DNA from: an uncultured Gammaproteobacteria bacterium
GTDB taxonomy: Bacteria; Patescibacteriota; Microgenomatia; Daviesbacterales; UBA10151
Assembly: GCA_964522265.1 (NCBI GenBank)
Contig: CAZFVS010000029.1
Span: 4,842 to 11,467, forward strand
Direction of reading: 5' to 3'
Length of the DNA: 6,626 nt
Under the pieces are notes generated by a model. It was given only the letters and a program-made list of their open reading frames with translations. It was not told the DNA's origin and did not search any database. Numbering within the stretch: position 1 is the first letter of the stretch; each line of letters begins with the position of its first letter. Below, one piece after another: positions 1 to 6,626 of the stretch. Made by a program: the position numbers and the translations under genes.

Positions 1-147
1 TATCAAGAGGAAGAGGCAGGAAAAAACGGCCGAACATAATGATCAGGAATCCTGCCAGTATCATCAGGATCCCTGGAATACTATGGAAAGGTTTTTTAAA
101 AAGTCTGTTAGCCAGCTCTCCGAGGTAAAAGAATGATACTGCACCAA
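1..147 (-). CDS. possible 5' part of a small membrane protein (partial, runs off the left edge)
   Basis: The minus-strand frame is open from TTG 147..145 (GTG 144..142; internal ATG 64..62 preceded by AGGGA) to the window edge. The translation ..HSIPGILMILAGFLIIMFGRFFLPLPLD contains one clear hydrophobic helix. It is not in the supplied track because it has no stop in the window. A competing plus-strand frame (2..136, highly charged, ends TGA) looks like the antisense shadow of a TM segment but cannot be excluded. Confidence 0.3.
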
Positions 148-176
148 TGAAAAAAGCTAAAATTATTCGCATTAGT

Positions 177-368
177 AAGCTTAAGTGTAAGGAATTTGAA
201 GCTGGAATGCAAATTGTACTGAGGTAACCGTTCAGGAGTTAACAAAACTTTTATCGTTCGAGGCTGGAAGCCGAGAACTAAATAAGTTTTTTACTTCTCT
301 CCGGCTTCGCCCGCCTTTGGCGTGGCTTCGCCGGATCGAAGAATAATATCCTTCGTCAAAGCTTAAGT
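177..368. repeat. 10-bp direct repeats AAGCTTAAGT (177-186 and 359-368) bracketing a 172-bp non-coding segment
   Basis: The exact 10-mer is read twice, 182 bp apart, in the intergenic region. The enclosed segment holds the only strongly GC-rich hairpins in this AT-rich window. Only a weak AAGGA-containing inverted match exists near the inner ends. Confidence 0.35.
301..355 (+). other. GC-rich nested stem-loop followed by a second hairpin (possible structured RNA or regulatory element)
   Basis: CCGGC(301-305)/GCCGG(330-334) forms an outer stem. A symmetric TTC/TTC internal loop separates it from the inner stem GCCCGCC(309-315)/GGCGTGGC(319-326), which has one bulged T and a TTT loop. The motif GGCTTCGCC occurs twice (303-311, 324-332). 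A second hairpin is CGAAG(337-341)/CTTCG(351-355) with a 9-nt loop. No U-tract follows on either strand, so it is not a canonical intrinsic terminator. Confidence 0.4.
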
Positions 369-379
369 TTGCAAACGAG

Positions 380-408
380 TTGCCTATACAGATATCTTAT
401 AGTACAAT
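380..408 (+). promoter_or_regulatory. sigma70-like promoter giving a near-leaderless transcript for the 416 ORF
   Basis: -35 TTGCCT (380-385), 17-nt spacer, -10 TACAAT (403-408), then 7 nt to ATG 416. There is no Shine-Dalgarno. The TTG at 380 that opens the supplied ORF coincides with the -35 hexamer. Confidence 0.4.
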
Positions 409-415
409 TATCCCC

Positions 416-997
416 ATGGCAAAACTATTAGAACTTGAAGGAACGTCCAAAATGTTAATTGATAACGCGGGGTCTTTTTCTGTATTTGATCCTTTCGCTA
501 ACTCAAGAAGAACAATAGGTCAAAGAGCAATTGCACTTATTCTTCGGCCTTTAATGCTAGCGGTAGCTTCGGGAAAGAGTACCCATTGGTTTGATTATCA
601 GGATCTAGAAGCTCCAGAATATTATGAAGGCTTAAGAATTCCAGGGGATTATAAAGCTTTTGACATTGGTCATCCCGATATTATCTTAAGACGACTTAGG
701 CATGTCCACATGAGCTTAGGAGGCTGGAAAGAAACTGTTCTAATAGGGCCAGATCCAGGCCGGGCTAACGCGGAAAGATTAGGAAAAACTGGATGGCTTT
801 ATGGATTTCGTGTATTAGGACCGGAGGGAACGGTATTAAAATCTCAGTACAGTCGGTTACTAAATCCTGGTTTTACCTCAATCCTTATCCTTAGAGGTCC
901 GAGAGAATTTGACGCGATTGGATTGGATCCGGAAACCTTGGATGAAATTCCTTTAGCTGGAATGAGACTCATTAGACGAGGGATAAATATTCAGTAG
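416..997 (+). CDS. hypothetical protein, 193 aa, no family recognised
   Basis: This is the supplied ORF 380..997. I prefer ATG 416 (MAKLLELEG..) because of the promoter geometry. ATG 452, preceded by AAGGA at 9 nt, is an alternative. The protein is soluble-looking and G/P/R-rich, with no TM segment, and the region is visibly higher in G+C than 2000-5400. Confidence 0.75.
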   Translation: MAKLLELEGTSKMLIDNAGSFSVFDPFANSRRTIGQRAIALILRPLMLAVASGKSTHWFDYQDLEAPEYYEGLRIPGDYKAFDIGHPDIILRRLRHVHMSLGGWKETVLIGPDPGRANAERLGKTGWLYGFRVLGPEGTVLKSQYSRLLNPGFTSILILRGPREFDAIGLDPETLDEIPLAGMRLIRRGINIQ

Positions 998-1063
998 GAC
1001 TTAGTCTTTGTACAAACCTCATCTTGATTTCGGGTAATATTTGGGGTAATGTAGAGTTATTCT

Positions 1064-1900
1064 ATGGAAAATAGTTTGGCAATCTTCGAAGATTATAAAA
1101 TCCGCCGCCTTTGGGATGAAAAAAAGGAGAAGTGGTATTTTTCTGTTGTGGATATTATCGCGGTTTTAACAGAGCGGCCTGGACATAAAAGAGCCCAAAG
1201 TTATTGGACAACACTAAAAAATCGCTTAAAAGAAGAAGGAAGCGAGGTCGTCACAAAATGTGACCAACTGAAAATGATGGCTTCTGATAGGAAATATTAT
1301 TTGACGGATGCTGCCGATGTGGAAACTATTTTACGGCTTATTCAATCAATTCCATCGCCAAATGTAGAACCATTCAAATTATGGCTTGCAAGAGTGGGTT
1401 ATGAAAGGATGCAGGAAACGGTTGATCCTGAAAGATCTCTAAACCGCGCCCGGGAAAACTGGCACAAGTTAGGCCGAAGCGAAAAATGGATCCAGCAAAG
1501 GATGATGGGCCAGGAGACCCGCAACAAACTAACAGATTATTGGAGTACTCATGAAATAAAAAAAGGAGAACAGTTTGCCGTATTAACCAATATTATTCAT
1601 CAGGAGTGGGCAGGATTAACTGTCAAAGAACATAAGGGTTTAAAAGGACTGAAGAATCAAAATTTGCGGGACCATATGAGTGAGGCAGAACTGATTTTTA
1701 CAGCCCTTGCGGAATTATCAACAAGACAAATAGCGCAAAGCAACAAAGCCACTGGTATGAAAGAAAATAAACAGGCAAGCAAAACAGGTGGCGGTATTGC
1801 CAAAAAAGCCAGGTTGGAACTGGAAGGGAAAACCGGCAAAAAAGTTATTTCTAAGGAAAATTATTTGGCATATAGGAATAAGGAGCTAGATATTAAATAA
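1064..1900 (+). CDS. Bro-N domain protein, DinD-like (DNA-damage-inducible protein D family)
   Basis: The N-terminus IFEDYKIRRLWDEKKEKWYFSVVDIIAVLTE..YW..LKNRLKEEGSE...LKMMASDRKYYLTDAADVETILRLIQSIPSPNVEPFKLWLA matches my recollection of the Bro-N fold family. The C-terminal FAVLTN..KEHKGLKGLKNQNLRDHMSEAEL resembles the E. coli DinD segment ..HQRKGLKKNQKILDHMGSTEL. The last 5 codons (1886-1900) are antisense to tatD fragment 1. Confidence 0.9.
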   Translation: MENSLAIFEDYKIRRLWDEKKEKWYFSVVDIIAVLTERPGHKRAQSYWTTLKNRLKEEGSEVVTKCDQLKMMASDRKYYLTDAADVETILRLIQSIPSPNVEPFKLWLARVGYERMQETVDPERSLNRARENWHKLGRSEKWIQQRMMGQETRNKLTDYWSTHEIKKGEQFAVLTNIIHQEWAGLTVKEHKGLKGLKNQNLRDHMSEAELIFTALAELSTRQIAQSNKATGMKENKQASKTGGGIAKKARLELEGKTGKKVISKENYLAYRNKELDIK

Positions 1901-2014
1901 TTGCTGAAAATTTTGGGCCGTTTGCTCTGCGACTTTTTCAAAAGGCTCGTTTTTAATGTCTGCAATTGTCTTGGCGATTTCTAAAACTGAAGCTGGTTCA
2001 TTTCTTGGGCCTAT
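1886..2014 (-). pseudogene. displaced 3' fragment of tatD (copy 1, last 42 codons plus stop)
   Basis: The minus-strand translation is GPRNEPASVLEIAKTIADIKNEPFEKVAEQTAQNFQQLFNI*. The real TatD end is GKRNEPSSVREIAQVVAEIKNKPLEKVASQTTDNVKKLFNI*. By hand, 26/41 aa and 92/126 nt are identical with no gaps. The fragment has no start codon or upstream ORF, and an in-frame TAA lies a few codons upstream. Confidence 0.8.
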
Positions 2015-2034
2015 TTTGAATAGTTGGTGGTACA

Positions 2035-2328
2035 ATTATTTCACAAGAATACGATTTATCTTCACATGCTCATCAGGAGCGGCAAGAAGAACAAATTACA
2101 ATAGATGAAATCGAGAGAGCAATCCTAAAAGGTGATATAATTGAAGAGTATCCGCAAGACCCAAGAGGGAAAAGCTGTTTGGTTAGCAGCAAAGCTGAGA
2201 GCAAGTCGCTCCATGTGGTTTGTGGATTTAGAGGAGAAAGATTGTTGATAGTGACAGTTTATCGTCCAAAACCACCGGTTTGGAAAGATTTTAAAACAAG
2301 AATAAAGGAGGTAAAAGATCGTGTCTAA
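2035..2328 (+). CDS. DUF4258-like putative toxin lacking a canonical start codon (possibly a pseudogene)
   Basis: The frame is open from after TGA 2017-2019 to TAA 2326-2328. The translation is IISQEYDLSSHAHQERQEEQITIDEIERAILKGDIIEEYPQDPRGKSCLVSSKAESKSLHVVCGFRGERLLIVTVYRPKPPVWKDFKTRIKEVKDRV. It fits the remembered DUF4258 pattern: S-x-HA..R.I near the N-terminus, LHVV, and TVY.P....W. The first in-frame ATG/GTG/TTG is TTG 2179, so the ORF fell below the track cutoff. Only ATT 2035/2038, downstream of GGTGG 2026-2030, could serve as a start. The stop overlaps the next gene's GTG by 8 nt. Confidence 0.65.
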   Translation: MISQEYDLSSHAHQERQEEQITIDEIERAILKGDIIEEYPQDPRGKSCLVSSKAESKSLHVVCGFRGERLLIVTVYRPKPPVWKDFKTRIKEVKDRV

Positions 2329-2563
2329 ATGTTTCTTTTGTAAAGGTAAAACTCAAATAAAAAAGATTAATGTTGATTTTAGATGGAGAGATCAACTATT
2401 TGTGGTAAATAATGTGCCAGTAGAGGTATGTACTCAGTGTGGTGAAAGGTATTATTCAGTAGAAGTGTCTAAAAAACTTGACCAGTTGGTTAAAAAACAA
2501 ACCAAGAATAACAAAATTAAGCCTAAAGAAATTATTGAAGTCCCTGTTTTTAGCTGGCAATAA
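2321..2563 (+). CDS. YgiT-type zinc-finger protein (MqsA N-terminal-like), putative antitoxin partner of DUF4258
   Basis: Two CxxC pairs (CFFC and CTQC) flank ..VVNNVPVEVCTQCGERYYS.EVSKKLDQL, the typical YgiT-type layout. The GTG start at 2321 has GGAGG (2307-2311) 9 nt upstream and overlaps the upstream stop. Confidence 0.85.
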   Translation: MSKCFFCKGKTQIKKINVDFRWRDQLFVVNNVPVEVCTQCGERYYSVEVSKKLDQLVKKQTKNNKIKPKEIIEVPVFSWQ

Positions 2564-2567
2564 TTTA

Positions 2568-3185
2568 ATGTCCCAAAAAGGTTTTGCTCCGATTGTTTTT
2601 ATTTTAGGAATTTTACTTGTTTCTGCTGGGATAATTGGCGGAGCATATTATTACAAAACAACTACAGAAAAGTCTAAGATTTCAGAACAAAAAAATATTA
2701 CTTCTAAAACCACACCAATCTCTACCCCAACAGACGAAAGTGCAAATTGGAAGATCTATACAAATAGTGATTGGCAAATAAGTTTCAATTATCCTTCAGG
2801 ATGGGAGATAGGATCTAATGGGCCTACTTCTATAGAACTAAATGTGAACTCAGCGCCCTATGTGAATTTTTCTTATATTGAGAACTCAAAAAACCTAACC
2901 CTGCAACAAATTGATCGAGAAAATACTAAAAAAGATAAAGAACGAGGGATGGGTGTTAACAGTCCTGCTGTCGCTCCTTCAAATTACACCATAATTACAA
3001 CCAAAAATGATTATAACACTTATTATGAAAAAGAATACTTCTGTGAACCTTCGGTATGTGAGAGATATACAATCGTTGTCTCAAACAAGATTATTCAAAT
3101 AGTGATATTCCCAAGGATGAAAGAACTTAAAGATTATTCTAAAATAATTGATCAAATTCTTTCTACCTTTAAATTTTTAGATTAA
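2568..3185 (+). CDS. N-terminally anchored secreted protein, 205 aa (paralog of the first 230 aa of 4231..5373)
   Basis: The in-frame ATG 2568 lies 4 nt after the zinc-finger stop. The supplied 2478 start would overlap that gene by 86 nt. The protein has MSQKGFAPIVFILGILLVSAGIIGGAYYY as a TM anchor, a T/S/P linker, an NWKIYTNSD..IS..YP motif, and ends IIDQILSTFKFLD*. The stop lies inside tatD fragment 2. Confidence 0.85.
   Translation: MSQKGFAPIVFILGILLVSAGIIGGAYYYKTTTEKSKISEQKNITSKTTPISTPTDESANWKIYTNSDWQISFNYPSGWEIGSNGPTSIELNVNSAPYVNFSYIENSKNLTLQQIDRENTKKDKERGMGVNSPAVAPSNYTIITTKNDYNTYYEKEYFCEPSVCERYTIVVSNKIIQIVIFPRMKELKDYSKIIDQILSTFKFLD
2600..2693 (+). repeat. 94-nt direct repeat, copy 1 (92/94 identical to 4269-4362)
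   Basis: Hand comparison finds only two mismatches (T/C in AATT[T/C]TAC and A/G in TAAG[A/G]TTT). The repeat covers the TM anchor and the start of the linker of the two paralogous genes. Confidence 0.9.
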
Positions 3186-3284
3186 AAAGCCTTTTGACAT
3201 TTCAGTTGTTTGATTGACAACTTTTTCAAACGGGACGTTTTTAATTGCCTCAACAGTTTGTGATTTCTCTACTGGAGGAGGTTT
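3177..3284 (-). pseudogene. displaced 3' fragment of tatD (copy 2, about 35 codons plus stop)
   Basis: The minus-strand translation is KPPPVEKSQTVEAIKNVPFEKVVNQTTEMSKGFLI*. The TatD end is ..VREIAQVVAEIKNKPLEKVASQTTDNVKKLFNI*. About 61/93 nt are identical by hand with one codon gap. It has no start and abuts the abiEii stop (3295-3297) in a different frame. Confidence 0.7.
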
Positions 3285-3294
3285 ACTGTTTGAA

Positions 3295-3966
3295 TTATTT
3301 AAATATATCACCTTTGAGTGATTTTGCTAAATTCAGGAAAAATTCTTCTAAAGCGGTTTTATTAAAGGGAGTAAGCATTTTTGGAAGATCTTCATCTTTA
3401 ATCTCCTTTGCCTTTACAAATTGGCTTGCTAAAGTTATTTTATCAATGTGCCAATCAAATTTTACTTTCGCATCTTTGATCAGCTGACCCAATTGATAAT
3501 TGAATGTTTTCATAATGAAGTAAATGTCAATAAAATCCCTGCCCCTTGTCCGCATAAACATGGTATGTATTTTATTAACTGCAATATCATAAATACTGTC
3601 TATCTCTAAATTTTTGTATTTTTTACCCTTTTCAATCCTGGGAAATGGATAATAGTTAAAGTCTACTTTTAAGTACTGATTATCCTTAAAAATCAAAATA
3701 TAGCTGACTAAACCTAAAAATTGGCTTTTTTTAACCTCTTTTATTTTAAGGGGGTGTGAAATTTTTCTTAGGAAGGTATCAATTAAAGTTTGGTCAACTT
3801 CTTCAGTTTCTGTAAAAAGGTCTATATCTTCTGATAATCTGTGATGCAGGTAAAACTCTGAAAGGACAGTTCCACCAGTAAAATAGAAGCGTTTAGTTAT
3901 TTGTGGCTCTTGTTGTATAAGCTCCAAAAAGTTAAGTTGTTGGGTAGTGAGTATAGTTTTCCCCAT
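3295..3966 (-). CDS. abiEii: nucleotidyltransferase AbiEii/AbiGii toxin family protein (DUF1814)
   Basis: FYFTGGTVLSEFYLHHRLSEDIDLFT carries the NTase hG[GS]..D.D signature. Together with ..RGRDFIDIYF.. and the 223-aa length, this is typical of AbiEii-family toxins as I recall them. Confidence 0.9.
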   Translation of the reverse strand: MGKTILTTQQLNFLELIQQEPQITKRFYFTGGTVLSEFYLHHRLSEDIDLFTETEEVDQTLIDTFLRKISHPLKIKEVKKSQFLGLVSYILIFKDNQYLKVDFNYYPFPRIEKGKKYKNLEIDSIYDIAVNKIHTMFMRTRGRDFIDIYFIMKTFNYQLGQLIKDAKVKFDWHIDKITLASQFVKAKEIKDEDLPKMLTPFNKTALEEFFLNLAKSLKGDIFK

Positions 3967-4160
3967 AGTAAATATTCAAGCAGCCTGGCTTTATATGGAT
4001 CAAGTTGACCCTTGATTTTAGGCCAGGCTTTTTTAACCTCCTCCCTATCCAGTTTTTCCCCATCCAGGCCATAATTTATAAGTTGAGTCAGTCTCCAAAG
4101 CTTATACCCTTTGGGATTTTCTTTTTTAAATCTTTTTTCATCAACAGACCAATTATACAT
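3897..4160 (-). CDS. small protein upstream of abiEii, putative cognate antitoxin (atypical: 87 aa, not a full AbiEi)
   Basis: This is the supplied ORF MYNWSVDEKRFKKENPKGYKLWRLTQLINYGLDGEKLDREEVKKAWPKIKGQLDPYKARLLEYLLWGK.. It is in the same operon position as AbiEi. Its final 23 codons overlap abiEii by 70 nt in another frame. An extended -10 lies 6 nt upstream of its ATG. Confidence 0.7.
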   Translation of the reverse strand: MYNWSVDEKRFKKENPKGYKLWRLTQLINYGLDGEKLDREEVKKAWPKIKGQLDPYKARLLEYLLWGKLYSLPNNLTFWSLYNKSHK

Positions 4161-4166
4161 CCTCTA

Positions 4167-4175
4167 ATTATACCA
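4167..4175 (-). promoter_or_regulatory. extended -10 promoter (TGGTATAAT) for the small-ORF/abiEii operon, near-leaderless
   Basis: The reverse complement of 4167-4175 is TGGTATAAT, followed by TAGAGG (6 nt) and ATG 4160. The -35 is weak (ACCTAA at 17-nt spacing). Confidence 0.4.
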
Positions 4176-4194
4176 AAATTTAGGCAGTTTTAGG

Positions 4195-4223
4195 TTGTCT
4201 ATTACCTGATCTTTTGCTATCTT
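4195..4223 (+). promoter_or_regulatory. sigma70-like promoter for the 4231 gene, near-leaderless
   Basis: -35 TTGTCT (4195-4200), 17-nt spacer, -10 TATCTT (4218-4223), then 7 nt to ATG 4231. There is no Shine-Dalgarno. Confidence 0.3.
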
Positions 4224-4230
4224 TAAATTA

Positions 4231-5373
4231 ATGCCATATTTTCAAAAAGGCTTTGCGCCAATAATAATTATTTTAGGAATTCTACTTGTTTCTGCTGGGA
4301 TAATTGGCGGAGCATATTATTACAAAACAACTACAGAAAAGTCTAAGGTTTCAGAACAAAAACCTGCCACTCCTAAAGCCACGCCAATTCCTTCCCAAGC
4401 AGATGAAACTGTAAATGAGGCAAAGCCTCTTTCCTCCGGAAATTGGAAAACATATACCAATTCAGATTTTGGCATTTCATTGGAGTATCCAGCAGATGCA
4501 GTAGTTAGCACAAAAACTCTTTATAGTATGCTGTCAAAATCGTCAAATGGTTTAGATATTGCCCCTCCTTATCAAGAACCATACTCAAAATACTACACCT
4601 TTGATTTAGTAGTACAAGATAATCCACAAAATCAGGATGCAAAAACAATAATCAACAACTATATAGCAGATATTAAGAAAAATTGTACCCCTCCTGCTTG
4701 TAGCACACCAAAAATGATTACTGATACATTAAAACCATATAAAAACGGAGAAATTAATGGGTATATCTTCCATATCGGAGCAGAGACTGATTCGGCAATG
4801 GTTGTACAAGTCAAAAGTAATAAAACTTATATTTTCAGAATGAGCGGAGATCAAGGAAATGTTTCCGATTACGGCCTGAATATTTTTGATCAAATCCTCT
4901 CTGCTTTTAATTTTTTAGATAAAGACATTTCAACTGAGAGAATAGTTATTAAGGATGATTATTGGTTTGAGTTTAATATTCCTAGGGGATACAGGTTAGA
5001 TCGTAATAAAATAGGTAGCTACTTAGGGTATATAGTAGATGAAAAAGGTAATAAATTATTAGGGTTTGGTTTTAATTCTGCGGGAGGCGAACTGTCTCCT
5101 AAGGGAAAGACGATTATAGATGGTGTTCCTTTTACTATTGAGTATGATACTGAAGTTAGTTGTTCAGTAGCTGTCTATCCTACAAATCTTAAATTTTCTT
5201 TAGATAGATTGTATTTTTTTGTTTCTACTTGGTGTAAACCCGGAGAAGAGGGGAAAAATATATCCAATAAATCTTTATATACAGATGTTATAAGCAGTAT
5301 AAAATTTAGTGATAAATTAAAAGATATTCTATTTGGGAAAACCCAACCACCGTTATTAAAAGAAATTGATTAG
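4231..5373 (+). CDS. N-terminally anchored secreted protein, 380 aa (paralog of 2568..3185 plus a 150-aa C-terminal extension)
   Basis: The protein has MPYFQKGFAPIIIILGILLVSAGIIGGAYYYKTTTEKSK as a TM anchor, a P/T/A linker and the NWKTYTNSDFGISLEYP motif. IFDQILSAFNFLD at residues 218-230 aligns with the paralog's C-terminus, and the ORF then continues for 150 more codons. The stop TAG 5371-5373 overlaps the tatD stop convergently. Confidence 0.85.
   Translation: MPYFQKGFAPIIIILGILLVSAGIIGGAYYYKTTTEKSKVSEQKPATPKATPIPSQADETVNEAKPLSSGNWKTYTNSDFGISLEYPADAVVSTKTLYSMLSKSSNGLDIAPPYQEPYSKYYTFDLVVQDNPQNQDAKTIINNYIADIKKNCTPPACSTPKMITDTLKPYKNGEINGYIFHIGAETDSAMVVQVKSNKTYIFRMSGDQGNVSDYGLNIFDQILSAFNFLDKDISTERIVIKDDYWFEFNIPRGYRLDRNKIGSYLGYIVDEKGNKLLGFGFNSAGGELSPKGKTIIDGVPFTIEYDTEVSCSVAVYPTNLKFSLDRLYFFVSTWCKPGEEGKNISNKSLYTDVISSIKFSDKLKDILFGKTQPPLLKEID
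4269..4362 (+). repeat. 94-nt direct repeat, copy 2 (92/94 identical to 2600-2693)
   Basis: See copy 1. Looser similarity extends upstream to about 4243 (matching about 2574). Confidence 0.9.
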
Positions 5374-6233
5374 ATATTAAAAAGTTTTTTAACATTATCT
5401 GTAGTCTGACTTGCAACTTTTTCCAAAGGCTTGTTTTTAATTTCTGCAACTACCTGTGCGATTTCGCGGACTGAGGATGGTTCATTTCTTTTACCCCGGA
5501 TTGACTGGGGAGGTAAAAATGGGGAATCTGTTTCCAAAACAATCCTTTCTAAAGGTAATATCCTAACCGCTTCTTTTAAATAATCATTCTTGGGATAAGT
5601 TAAGTTTCCGGCAAAAGATACATAAAAATTAGTATTAAGTAGTAAGTATTTAGTAGTAAGCGAAAGGCCGGAATAACAGTGATAGACGCCTTTCCAGTCT
5701 TTGGTCATTTCTATAACTTCATCCCAAGCCTCAGTGTTCTCCGGGTTTTTAGTCCTGTCATCGCGGCAATGTATTAATAAAGGTAGGTTTAGCTTTTTTG
5801 CCAGGTCGATTTGGGATTGAAACAACTTTCTCTGTAAATTTTTCGCTTGTTCAACTGATAAGCCGAGAGGTAAATATCCTTCCCTGTTAAAATATGCAAA
5901 GTCCAGCCCGCATTCGCCGATTGCAATCACAGTTTCTCTGTTTTCGAGATAAATTTTTTCCAGAGCCGCGAGATCTTTCCCCATAATACTTGATACTTGT
6001 CCCTTGTCCCAGTATTTAACCGCTTCTTCAGGATGGATTGCAATGGAAGAATAAAGTTTAAATTCAGCGGAAGATTCCTTTTTAGCCTGTTCGGTAGCAG
6101 TCCGGCTTAAATTAACATCCACACCGACATTTATCGCAGCTGTGACCCCGGCTTCAATGGCACGGTTTATCACATCTTTAATATCGTTTTTGTATGAGTC
6201 CCAAAATAAATGTGCATGGGTATCTATAAACAT
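5370..6233 (-). CDS. tatD: TatD-family metal-dependent hydrolase/DNase
   Basis: The ORF shows the classic TatD motifs: MFIDTHAHL, IAIGECGLDF, LLIHCRD, YHCYSG and LETDSPFLPPQSIRGKRNEP. It is 287 aa long. Confidence 0.95.
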   Translation of the reverse strand: MFIDTHAHLFWDSYKNDIKDVINRAIEAGVTAAINVGVDVNLSRTATEQAKKESSAEFKLYSSIAIHPEEAVKYWDKGQVSSIMGKDLAALEKIYLENRETVIAIGECGLDFAYFNREGYLPLGLSVEQAKNLQRKLFQSQIDLAKKLNLPLLIHCRDDRTKNPENTEAWDEVIEMTKDWKGVYHCYSGLSLTTKYLLLNTNFYVSFAGNLTYPKNDYLKEAVRILPLERIVLETDSPFLPPQSIRGKRNEPSSVREIAQVVAEIKNKPLEKVASQTTDNVKKLFNI

Positions 6234-6240
6234 AAAGATA

Positions 6241-6246
6241 ATTATA
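6241..6246 (-). promoter_or_regulatory. -10 hexamer TATAAT 7 nt upstream of the tatD ATG (near-leaderless)
   Basis: The reverse complement of 6241-6246 is TATAAT, followed by TATCTTT and ATG (6233..6231). I found no convincing -35 and no Shine-Dalgarno. Confidence 0.35.
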
Positions 6247-6307
6247 CAACTGTTGTTTCTAAATACTCTATCTTGTTTTGTTATACAAGCTATGTTATTA
6301 AATATAT

Positions 6308-6626
6308 ATGAATCTGCCTAAGCCACAAAAGGGGATTGCAGCCATTCTTATATTAGGGTTGGTAGTTGCGGTAGCTGCTGCGGTTTATTTTTTTGTACTT
6401 AATAAACCAGGCGTTAACCCTCCTCAAAATCAAGTTATTAAAACTTTACCTAAACCACTCTTTCTTAATTTAGAAAGCCCAAGCAGTCAGACTGTGGCAA
6501 TTGATGACAATATTTTGATTAAAGGTAAAACATTACCCAATAGCAGGGTAGTGCTGTTTAATGCAACAGATGAGGAGGTTTTGGAGAGTGATTCTGAAGG
6601 TAAATTTATGGGGAAATTGCAACTTG
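6308..6626 (+). CDS. N-terminally anchored protein, partial (runs off the right edge)
   Basis: I translated from ATG 6308 to the window end and found no stop. The translation is MNLPKPQKGIAAILILGLVVAVAAAVYFFVLNKPGVNPPQNQ..ILIKGKTLPNSRVVLFNATDEEVLESDSEGKFMGKLQL. It has a TM anchor with the same QKG[FI]A opening as the other two anchored proteins. The beta-rich G.T.P...V.LF....ESDSEGKF pattern resembles Ig-like or carboxypeptidase-regulatory-like domains. Confidence 0.6.
   Translation, partial: MNLPKPQKGIAAILILGLVVAVAAAVYFFVLNKPGVNPPQNQVIKTLPKPLFLNLESPSSQTVAIDDNILIKGKTLPNSRVVLFNATDEEVLESDSEGKFMGKLQL

Follow-up and report, generated by a model that had tools for sequence, protein, structure and literature searches.

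The window analysed here is a 6,626-nucleotide (nt) stretch of a metagenome-assembled contig (GenBank CAZFVS010000029.1, positions 4,842 to 11,467) in which an intact tatD gene is followed by an island of small gene modules and by further copies of its own 3′ end. The host of this array is a Daviesbacteria-like genome of the Patescibacteria, or Candidate Phyla Radiation (CPR). The tatD gene (5370-6233, minus strand) encodes 287 amino acids (aa) and matches the Pfam profile TatD_DNase over all of its positions (1-253 of 253, E = 3.7e-64). Its product is 66-76% identical to the TatD proteins of Daviesbacteria and Patescibacteria metagenome-assembled genomes, which are its closest relatives. The last ~120 nt of the gene recur twice in direct orientation, at 1886-2012 and at 3177 to about 3290. 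The island comprises at least four modules, arranged in the following order from tatD: a module bearing the end now joined to the gene (copy A; module 1, 3284-5490), a module bearing copy B (module 2, 2007-3283), a unit made of copy C and a Bro-N gene, and a 193-aa open reading frame (ORF).

Three direct copies of the tatD 3′ end

Copy A (5370-5490, minus strand) is contiguous with tatD and forms its present end. Copy B (3177-3290, the right edge being approximate; minus strand), which ends in NSKPPPVEKSQTVEAIKNVPFEKVVNQTTEMSKGFLI before its stop codon and is the most diverged of the three, and copy C (1886-2012, minus strand), which ends in PRNEPASVLEIAKTIADIKNEPFEKVAEQTAQNFQQLFNI before its stop codon, were both recovered by nucleotide and protein profiles. 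In local nucleotide alignments evaluated against 2000 shuffles, the gene end matched 1886-2006 with a z-score of 30 and 3177-3283 with a z-score of 19.5, while fragments C and B matched each other with a z-score of 9.6; the observed score was reached by 0 of the 2000 shuffles in each of these three comparisons. Aligned codon for codon, copies A (5370-5492) and C (1886-2008) share 90 of 123 nt (73.2%) without a gap, and copies A and B (3177-3290) share 69 of 114 nt (60.5%) with two one-codon gaps. A protein profile built from 117 TatD C-termini recognized fragment C at E = 1.5e-19 and fragment B at E = 5e-5. At the nucleotide level, a profile made from the terminal 136 nt of 13 tatD genes and searched with nhmmer placed fragment C at 2012-1887 (E = 2e-25) and fragment B at 3281-3179 (E = 4e-12), and over the window it returned no copy beyond A, B, and C.

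All three copies contain a 26-nt block, ACTTTTTCnAAnGGnnnGTTTTTAAT, located at 1932-1957, 3220-3245, and 5416-5441, for which the shuffle expectation was 0. Fragments C (..LFNI) and B (..GFLI) keep the reading frame and end at an in-frame stop codon, and neither has a start codon or the catalytic portion of tatD. Their TatD homology begins at the RNEP motif or a few codons from it. These results bear out a preliminary description of the locus, made from the letters alone, which had reported three direct tatD 3′ ends, given the exact positions of the shared block, and noted the missing start and catalytic part as well as the point at which homology begins. Its hand-counted identity of about 73% for the fragment at 1886-2014 agrees with the alignment of A and C. 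For the fragment at 3284-3177 the similarity is real, whereas the figure of about 66% was slightly too high.

The differences among the copies are those of coding sequences. The ratio of nonsynonymous to synonymous substitution (dN/dS) was 0.48 between A and C and 0.39 between A and B, and the differences between A and C fall on codon positions 1, 2, and 3 in the numbers 14, 4, and 15. Among 115 TatD ends from other species, 24 are nearer to A than C is, and 12 are nearer to C than A is. The low identity of 60-73% with frame and stop retained, the dN/dS values, the codon pattern, and the placement among other TatD ends together indicate that the copies originated independently. To judge from these features, they look like working TatD ends that evolved in separate lineages and were then united.

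We then analysed the edge of the repeat. The 5′ edge of the tatD copy reads …AAGAAATGAACC. A and C are identical without interruption over at most 13 nt (AAGAAATGAACCA, 5478-5490 and 1994-2006); this run encodes (K)RNEP and sits at the very 5′ edge of the repeat, upstream of which only 7 of 30 positions match. Copy B begins a few nt from the same point, ~5 nt past the stop codon of an AbiEii gene. Such a sharp edge of identity on highly conserved sequence would, by analogy, have the look of an attachment-site (att) core. Part of the 13-nt identity, however, reflects protein constraint, because RNEP is invariant in TatD.

Two further marks were considered and rejected. Low guanine-plus-cytosine (GC) content does not single out end A as foreign, since the last 121 nt of tatD in relatives are also GC-poorer than the gene body. 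An attC-like fold of the repeat was not supported by single-stranded DNA folding, in which the three copies on both strands gave z-scores from +0.24 to -1.64 against shuffles. The sole match in an Rfam search was a sub-threshold chance hit to a small nucleolar RNA family.

Island boundaries and empty sites in related genomes

The left end of the window is occupied by the N-terminus (57 codons; 2..172, minus strand) of a conserved 588-aa membrane protein that runs off the window's left edge. It was identified by similarity to the 588-aa protein of a related locus (L001), with 47% identity over 57 of 57 residues (E = 2e-6). The window gene, which starts at 172, and the gene directly downstream of tatD in relatives have the start MRIIL.F.. 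in common. In the related loci L001, L002/L005, L008, L010, L018, L019, and L023, tatD is followed after 10-110 nt by this co-directional gene, encoding a membrane protein of 588-591 aa, and none of these loci contains an extra tatD end. The preliminary description had suggested looking for unoccupied tatD sites in relatives, and such sites are thus present in at least seven distinct related loci. Because the usual neighbour of tatD starts at 172 in the window, we regard the DNA from about 173 to 5369 (5.2 kb) as inserted. Host genes border the island on both sides, inside the window and in the expected orientation.

The interval between tatD and the 588-aa gene holds other DNA in other relatives. 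In loci L011-L017 it contains one convergent radical-SAM gene and no tatD remnant. A Daviesbacteria genome (L003) has a different 2-kb insert at the tatD site (10829-12843), with genes for a 385-aa J-domain-like protein and a 186-aa protein, both convergent with tatD. Between these insert genes lie tatD-end remnants, one at 11990-12037 (KIATGNFLKLFHLQS followed by a stop codon) and a shorter repeat at about 12666-12695. Within the window, modules 1 and 2 have a GC content of 0.33-0.34, compared with 0.39-0.41 in the tatD body, the Bro-N unit, and the neighbouring host gene.

Several additional observations were made around the boundaries. Two independent metagenome contigs break at the tatD 3′ end, one 55 nt past it (L009) and one at the stop codon (L030), as would be expected if strain-level variation begins there. 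Upstream of tatD, the window carries a divergent gene for a membrane-anchored protein (6234-6626), in the position where most relatives have metG (L008, L009, L010, L018, and L030); the upstream side of tatD has therefore been rearranged in this genome too. Near the opposite boundary, the reverse complement of 274-293, ..AAAAAACTTATTTAG (KKLI and a stop codon), matches the very end of tatD at 80% identity across 20 nt (family D17). The match may be due to chance, or this may be all that is left of the original gene end beside its native neighbour. Neither this sequence nor the one at about 4918-4940, considered as fourth and fifth remnants, was picked up by the nucleotide profile.

A GC-rich structured stretch at 250-360 (core 300-336, TCCGGCTTCGCCCGCCTTTGGCGTGGCTTCGCCGGA) stands out in the AT-rich region between the 588-aa gene and the 193-aa ORF. 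Its DNA fold gave z-scores of -4.5 on the minus strand and -3.0 on the plus strand; the hairpin has no T-run after it and no Rfam match. The motif AAGCA(A/G)AGCTTGC, often placed in a small hairpin, occurs downstream of tatD in L003 (12690-12720) and in the tail of L009, and also at both ends of the contig carrying locus L025 (1-50 and 1940-1990). It may be part of the native tatD-downstream sequence or of unit borders.

Gene content of the modules

In module 1, the gene next to tatD (4231..5373, plus strand) encodes a PsbP_2-like membrane-anchored protein of 380 aa, with a weak Pfam match (PsbP_2, E = 1.9e-3), and its stop codon overlaps that of tatD by 4 nt. The part of this gene after ..FNFLD (4924-5373) resembles a second, N-terminally truncated PsbP-like unit in frame, again with a weak match (E = 0.048). 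The junction at 4915-4945, TTTTTAGATAAAGACATTTCAACTG, resembles the end of the module 2 gene followed by the start of copy B (TTTTTAGATTAAAAAGCCTTTTGACATTTCAGTTG), from which it differs by a ~10-nt deletion that removes the stop codon. Judged by this resemblance, it may represent an almost erased fourth tatD-end remnant together with a gene fusion. The module also carries an AbiEii-type nucleotidyltransferase toxin gene (3295..3966, minus strand; 223 aa) that matches Pfam AbiEii at E = 9.4e-19 and 21 AbiEii models of PADLOC, the best at 1.4e-12. An 87-aa ORF from the ORF list (3897..4160, minus strand) lies upstream of the AbiEii gene and overlaps it. This ORF has no family match in the four collections searched (Pfam, PHROGs, NCBIfam, and PADLOC) and, by position only, is presumed to be the partner or antitoxin of AbiEii.

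Module 2 contains a second PsbP_2-like gene (2568..3185, plus strand) for a membrane-anchored protein of 205 aa, with a sub-threshold Pfam match (PsbP_2, E = 1.6e-4), whose stop codon overlaps copy B by 9 nt. The 205-aa and 380-aa proteins are paralogues with 39% aa identity (E = 3e-27). A stretch of ~96 nt encoding the membrane anchor of both is nearly identical between them (2600-2695 and 4269-4364), and because the rest of the paralogues is far more diverged, a recent gene conversion is suggested. Recombination through this repeat could drive the loss of the 1.67 kb lying between. Upstream in the same module lies a YgiT/MqsA-type zinc-finger antitoxin-like gene (2321..2563, plus strand; 80 aa) that matches TIGR03831 (YgiT_finger) at E = 1.1e-12 and Pfam MqsA_antitoxin at 1.3e-5, the latter below the family cut-off. 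It overlaps by 8 nt a DUF4258 toxin-like gene (2020..2328, plus strand), which covers the whole domain in residues 13-82 (Pfam DUF4258, E = 2.7e-22). The DUF4258 frame contains no ATG, GTG, or TTG codon from the upstream stop codon (2017-2019) to 2179 (codon 54). The gene may use a rare start codon (ATT or ATA), or its 5′ end may have been removed at the copy C junction.

The Bro-N unit (1019..2012), which is shared with other metagenomes, comprises the Bro-N gene together with copy C and ~40 nt of DNA preceding the gene. The Bro-N/DinD-like gene (1064..1900, plus strand; 278 aa) converges on copy C and overlaps it by 15 nt at its stop codon. The protein matches Pfam Bro-N (4.8e-6), phrog_15286 (9e-91), and PADLOC PDC-S13 (1.2e-119), and on these family matches it is a candidate anti-phage defence protein. 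Homologues of the gene at ~75% identity are spread over several phyla. In three loci (L027-L029), Bro-N/DinD-like homologues with 79% aa identity to the window gene lie between hsdM and hsdS in type I restriction-modification operons, which fits a defence-linked role of the family represented by PDC-S13. No tatD fragment accompanies the more distant Bro-N homologues found in other contexts (L026-L029). In the window, a stretch upstream of Bro-N (980-1066) was examined as possibly tatD-derived and dismissed, the similarity not being significant.

The module most distal to tatD is the 193-aa ORF (416..997, plus strand; 205 aa if read from a TTG at 380), which has a GC content of 0.41 and no adjoining tatD fragment. 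It has no match in the same four collections, and its single-sequence AlphaFold model was unusable (predicted local distance difference test, pLDDT, 32). No island ORF matched an integrase, resolvase, or transposase in these collections, and the island contains no tRNA gene. The preliminary description had suggested a search of the rest of the contig for a tyrosine or serine recombinase; the island ORFs within the window contain no detectable domain of either kind.

The same units in other metagenomes

The Bro-N gene and its tatD fragment recur together on short contigs of two other metagenomes (L024 and L025; samples SRR12113430 and SRR22388098). Positions 559-1500 of locus L024 are 90.6% identical to 1019-1957 of the window, and positions 926-1894 of locus L025 are 85.2% identical to 1023-1988. 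The left limit of the unit is equal within 4 nt (1019/1023 in the window) across all three loci, and the DNA outside the limits of the unit is unrelated. Beyond the left limit lie the 193-aa ORF in the window; an internal piece of another tatD fragment and then an unrelated gene in L024; and a spacer in L025, followed there by another tatD fragment and a PsbP-like gene. The Bro-N gene with copy C is therefore a discrete module of ~1 kb shared among metagenomes. The PsbP-like gene of L025 encodes 211 aa with 70% aa identity to the 205-aa protein of the window, and a tatD fragment follows both. Since the PsbP-like unit with its fragment is distal to the Bro-N unit in L025 and proximal to it in the window, both kinds of unit are present in L025, but their order as counted from tatD is reversed.

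These comparisons define which parts of the preliminary description can be retained. Its proposal of insertion at the tatD 3′ end with substitute ends is upheld by the empty sites and the independent origin of the ends, while its details need revision. The module sizes that it gave, ~1.2 kb and ~2.1 kb, correspond to 2007-3283 (1277 nt) and 3284-5490 (2207 nt). It had assumed just two insertions, whereas the island has more than two modules and their order differs in L025. It had also taken 1886-2014 as the oldest, original gene end; that fragment is separated from the native neighbour by 1.7 kb of inserted DNA (173-1885) and is part of the Bro-N unit that recurs at 85-91% identity in the two other metagenomes.

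The recurrence of the units also bears on whether the array could be an assembly artefact, that is, a chimeric contig joined through repeats of different strains. The tatD copies, at 60-73% identity, are too diverged for mis-joins, and tatD fragments beside cassettes are also present in the independent assemblies L024, L025, and L003. With the host genes on both flanks in their expected orientation as well, we consider an artefact very improbable, even though the source is a metagenome-assembled contig of 11.5 kb, the near-identical ~96-nt repeat could mislead an assembler, and several related contigs (e.g., L009 and L030) break right at the tatD 3′ end.

A second alternative is local tandem duplication, in which the tatD end and its convergent PsbP-like gene would have been duplicated by unequal crossing-over and have diverged in place, with the toxin-antitoxin and Bro-N genes inserted later. 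Modules 1 and 2 do each combine a tatD end with a convergent PsbP-like gene, these genes being paralogues that share the near-identical ~96-nt stretch, and the 380-aa gene seems to hold a third, truncated PsbP-like unit. Copy C, however, is joined to Bro-N and not to a PsbP-like gene, and the units are found elsewhere in another order and context. Duplication in place is also difficult to reconcile with the observation that A and C are each nearer to some TatD ends of other species than to each other, and with substitutions that are those of a coding sequence under constraint and not of a decaying pseudogene. At this level of divergence, moreover, related genomes show no duplication. We therefore regard local duplication as improbable.

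When identity between the window and L024 was examined along the unit, it proved to be a mosaic, with 100% over 1121-1420 and 72-73% over 1841-1960, which covers the gene end and the tatD fragment. This mosaic indicates that homologous recombination among cassette alleles is frequent.

We further extended the search to TatD fragments in other lineages. The 49-aa ORF of copy C gave 23 matches among 1.8 billion representative proteins. Three proteins of 66-87 aa (P0246, P0265, and P0267) have unrelated N-termini, with TatD homology starting from (P)YRG[KQ]RNEP. In one proviral contig (L051, 410-1249), TatD homology stops directly after RNEPSYV, and in another (L043) a large serine recombinase gene lies 62 nt beyond tatD. 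These cases fit a recurrent target at the RNEP motif in other lineages, the three short proteins and L051 as possible integration junctions. A word-indexed protein search with a 41-aa TatD C-terminal query yielded no candidate fragment, and viral contigs searched with the window TatD and the 26-nt block yielded nothing relevant. With a TatD C-terminal profile, 21 proviral contigs were found to have a full tatD at the edge, none with a second tatD end within 8 kb. Bro-N homologues on viral contigs had no tatD fragment nearby, and the PsbP-like query had no match there. The integrases of L035 and L036 were considered as tatD-targeting and set aside; they probably target tRNA genes, because tRNA-like repeats adjoin them.

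Proposed accretion of cassettes at the tatD 3′ end

We tentatively interpret the island as a series of mini-cassettes that lack an integrase and accreted in tandem at the tatD 3′ end, with site-specific recombination provided in trans and later reshuffling by homologous recombination, an interpretation to which we assign a little less than an even chance. Each cassette would comprise a single gene or a few genes together with a copy of the final ~40 tatD codons that it brings along, and the gene of the cassette would converge on this copy and overlap its stop codon. A circular cassette would recombine with the resident tatD by crossover at a short core within the invariant (K)RNEP codons. The cassette-borne end would then take over as the working end of the gene, and the prior end would be shifted downstream as a start-less fragment. 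Repetition at the re-formed site would leave the newest cassette adjoining tatD, and homologous recombination between cassette alleles would later reshuffle and patch the array. Since a recombinase domain is not detectable in the island ORFs, the enzyme would have to act in trans, supplied either by the host (a tyrosine recombinase) or by a complete element located elsewhere, and the modules would accordingly be units resembling cis-mobilizable elements (CIMEs).

The junctions between modules are tight, at 5-8 nt: the AbiEii stop at 3295 faces the start of copy B at about 3290, and the DUF4258 ORF at 2020 faces the end of copy C at 2012. Accretion explains this tight abutment together with the direct orientation of the copies, the intact gene, and the empty sites in relatives. 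It also explains why strongly diverged ends stand side by side, since a short core would suffice and no long homology would be needed. A longest A-C run of 13 nt is too short for an efficient RecA-dependent crossover, which favours a short-core, site-specific mechanism.

Several results weigh against this interpretation. The island ORFs, of which the 193-aa ORF has no match at all, contain no detectable integrase or recombinase domain, and host genes bound the island on both sides. Among 56 related or viral loci, no complete, integrase-bearing relative of any cassette was found. There is also hardly any space in the cassettes for a phage-type attP arm. The DUF4258 gene, lacking a normal start at the junction, is suggestive of an imprecise event, and that homologous recombination operates here is evident from the mosaic of 100% identity over 300 nt and 72% within the fragment. 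Fragments in related loci start at different positions of the 136-nt profile (7, 23, 32, 36, and 62), and the remnants in L003 are far shorter than the other fragments. The invariance of RNEP combined with AT-biased codons accounts for part of the 13-nt identity. In favour of a fixed core are the 13-nt edge block of A and C and the drop in identity upstream of it; against it are the invariant RNEP and the differing starts in L024, L025, and L003. Because fragment starts differ among related loci, a precise att site can be regarded as no more than probable.

The main alternative is insertion without any recombinase. Under this alternative, a foreign tatD end and the DNA behind it would enter by natural uptake. 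They would be added through illegitimate recombination that is facilitated by homology and anchored in tatD, or else, as a circularized fragment, through a single crossover dependent on RecA. Each event would leave behind the resident tatD end, and the interval from tatD to the 588-aa gene would act as a hotspot like those of minimal mobile elements. The island has no detectable recombinase, and imprecise joining would suit the variable extent of the fragments among loci (126 nt to ~20 nt), the internal fragment piece in L024 (profile positions 36-75 only), and the apparent clipping of the DUF4258 gene at its junction. Frequent homologous exchange, as seen in the window-L024 mosaic, and the unrelated genes without a tatD remnant in L011-L017 also agree with it, as does the fact that each cassette gene overlaps the stop codon of its tatD copy in the manner of a native convergent neighbour. 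Random joints would be expected, yet both window fragments begin within a few codons of RNEP, and fragment 1 of L024 and P0246, P0265, and P0267 possibly start near it too. Nor would random joints be expected to give the Bro-N unit a left limit that stays constant (±4 nt) across three contexts, and between copies that are 60-73% identical, with no exact run above 13 nt, a RecA crossover would be very inefficient. On balance, we consider recombinase-free insertion unlikely, but with a substantial chance of being correct.

Comparison with known systems

Accretion at tatD can be compared with elements that integrate into the 3′ ends of genes. In e14 and phage 21 at icd of E. coli, and in islands at tRNA and tmRNA genes, as in the island described here, the target is kept intact by a diverged, element-borne 3′ end, a direct-repeat fragment on the far side is what remains of the displaced end, the similarity sets in abruptly on one side, and the sites of relatives are empty. 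In the window, tatD is intact with a convergent island gene overlapping its stop, and both displaced end copies in direct orientation and unoccupied sites in related genomes are present. The analogy to e14 and phage 21 drawn in the preliminary description therefore extends to the substitute end, the displaced fragment, and the empty sites. It fails on a defining feature, because no island ORF has a detectable recombinase domain: a tyrosine or serine integrase gene was found neither beside the rebuilt gene nor elsewhere in the island with the four collections. The island units, at 1-2 kb, are also not prophage-sized.

Among known systems, CIME accretion is what the island resembles most closely. 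CIMEs lack an integrase and accrete in tandem at the 3′ end of a target gene (PMC5704250, section 2.3). Those related to ICESt1, at the 3′ end of fda in Streptococcus thermophilus (PMC5704250), likewise build up in tandem at one site, and they depend on a recombinase from another element, as the island would under trans-acting accretion. Modules 1 and 2 of the window are flanked by tatD-end copies and contain no mobility genes. In contrast to CIMEs, no related complete integrative and conjugative element (ICE) or integrative and mobilizable element (IME), and no cognate integrase, was found for the island in the window and the 56 related or viral loci. CIMEs also have short identical att sites, whereas the island repeats are ~120 nt long and diverged, and the island units are much smaller, carrying single defence or toxin-antitoxin genes.

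Chromosomal integron arrays share other properties with the island. Both are built of compact units that contain one or two genes and a terminal repeat of ~100 nt, both carry toxin-antitoxin and defence-candidate cargo, and in both the discrete units differ in order and context between genomes; in either case the proximal end would be the entry point of new units. The island differs in having no intI, attI, or promoter Pc, with tatD as its proximal gene, in having a repeat that is the end of a protein gene and does not fold as an attC-type hairpin, and in having cassette genes that face both ways. An integron-like capture system of Daviesbacteria-like CPR bacteria that is not an integron could nevertheless be envisaged, in which the last ~120 nt of tatD would serve as the portable site of the cassettes, entry would occur at RNEP with tatD restored, order would vary, and the recombinase would be located elsewhere or be dispensed with. 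We regard this description as doubtful, although it has an appreciable chance of applying.

Neisseria minimal mobile elements are variable cassettes between two conserved genes that are swapped by homologous recombination. The island resembles them in its fixed interval, in genes that differ between strains, in the lack of mobility genes, and in homologous exchange. The interval between tatD and the 588-aa gene is accordingly variable in content, being empty, or occupied by a radical-SAM gene (L011), by two other genes (L003), or by 5.2 kb (window). Minimal mobile elements, however, replace one another and are not known to leave copies of flank ends, whereas the island units accumulate in tandem, with tatD fragments in the window, L003, L024, and L025.

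The tatD gene itself is known as a target of streptococcal IMEs, which use a tyrosine integrase; one of them, IME_SanC238_tatD, enters the tatD 5′ end (PMC5704250, table; PMC7563491). These elements share with the island the use of tatD as a specific integration target, but differ in the 5′ location (IME_SanC238_tatD), in possessing their own integrase, and in belonging to Firmicutes. In the literature searched, whose partial coverage makes this weak evidence, we found no account of tatD 3′-end targeting or of such arrays in Patescibacteria.

Significance

Gene flow and mobile DNA are poorly understood in CPR/Patescibacteria, whose genomes are ~1 Mb in size and contain few recognizable mobile elements. 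The interest of the locus rests on its host, its target, its integrase-less mini-cassettes, and its defence-type cargo. If trans-acting accretion is correct, the tatD 3′ end would join the known protein-gene integration targets, the RNEP codons would offer a concrete site for asking which recombinase serves these organisms, and start-less TatD C-terminal fragments would provide a signature for finding further arrays in metagenomes. If the array is instead an integron-like capture system, its cassettes would carry defence candidates, toxin-antitoxin pairs, and surface proteins. If recombinase-free insertion is right, homology to a conserved gene end alone would be able to build cassette arrays. 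Under the accretion that we tentatively favour, these bacteria would possess a compact accessory-gene store, built by repeated insertion at one housekeeping gene without a resident integrase and stocked with a PDC-S13 candidate, AbiE-type and DUF4258/MqsA-type toxin-antitoxin pairs, and variable surface proteins.

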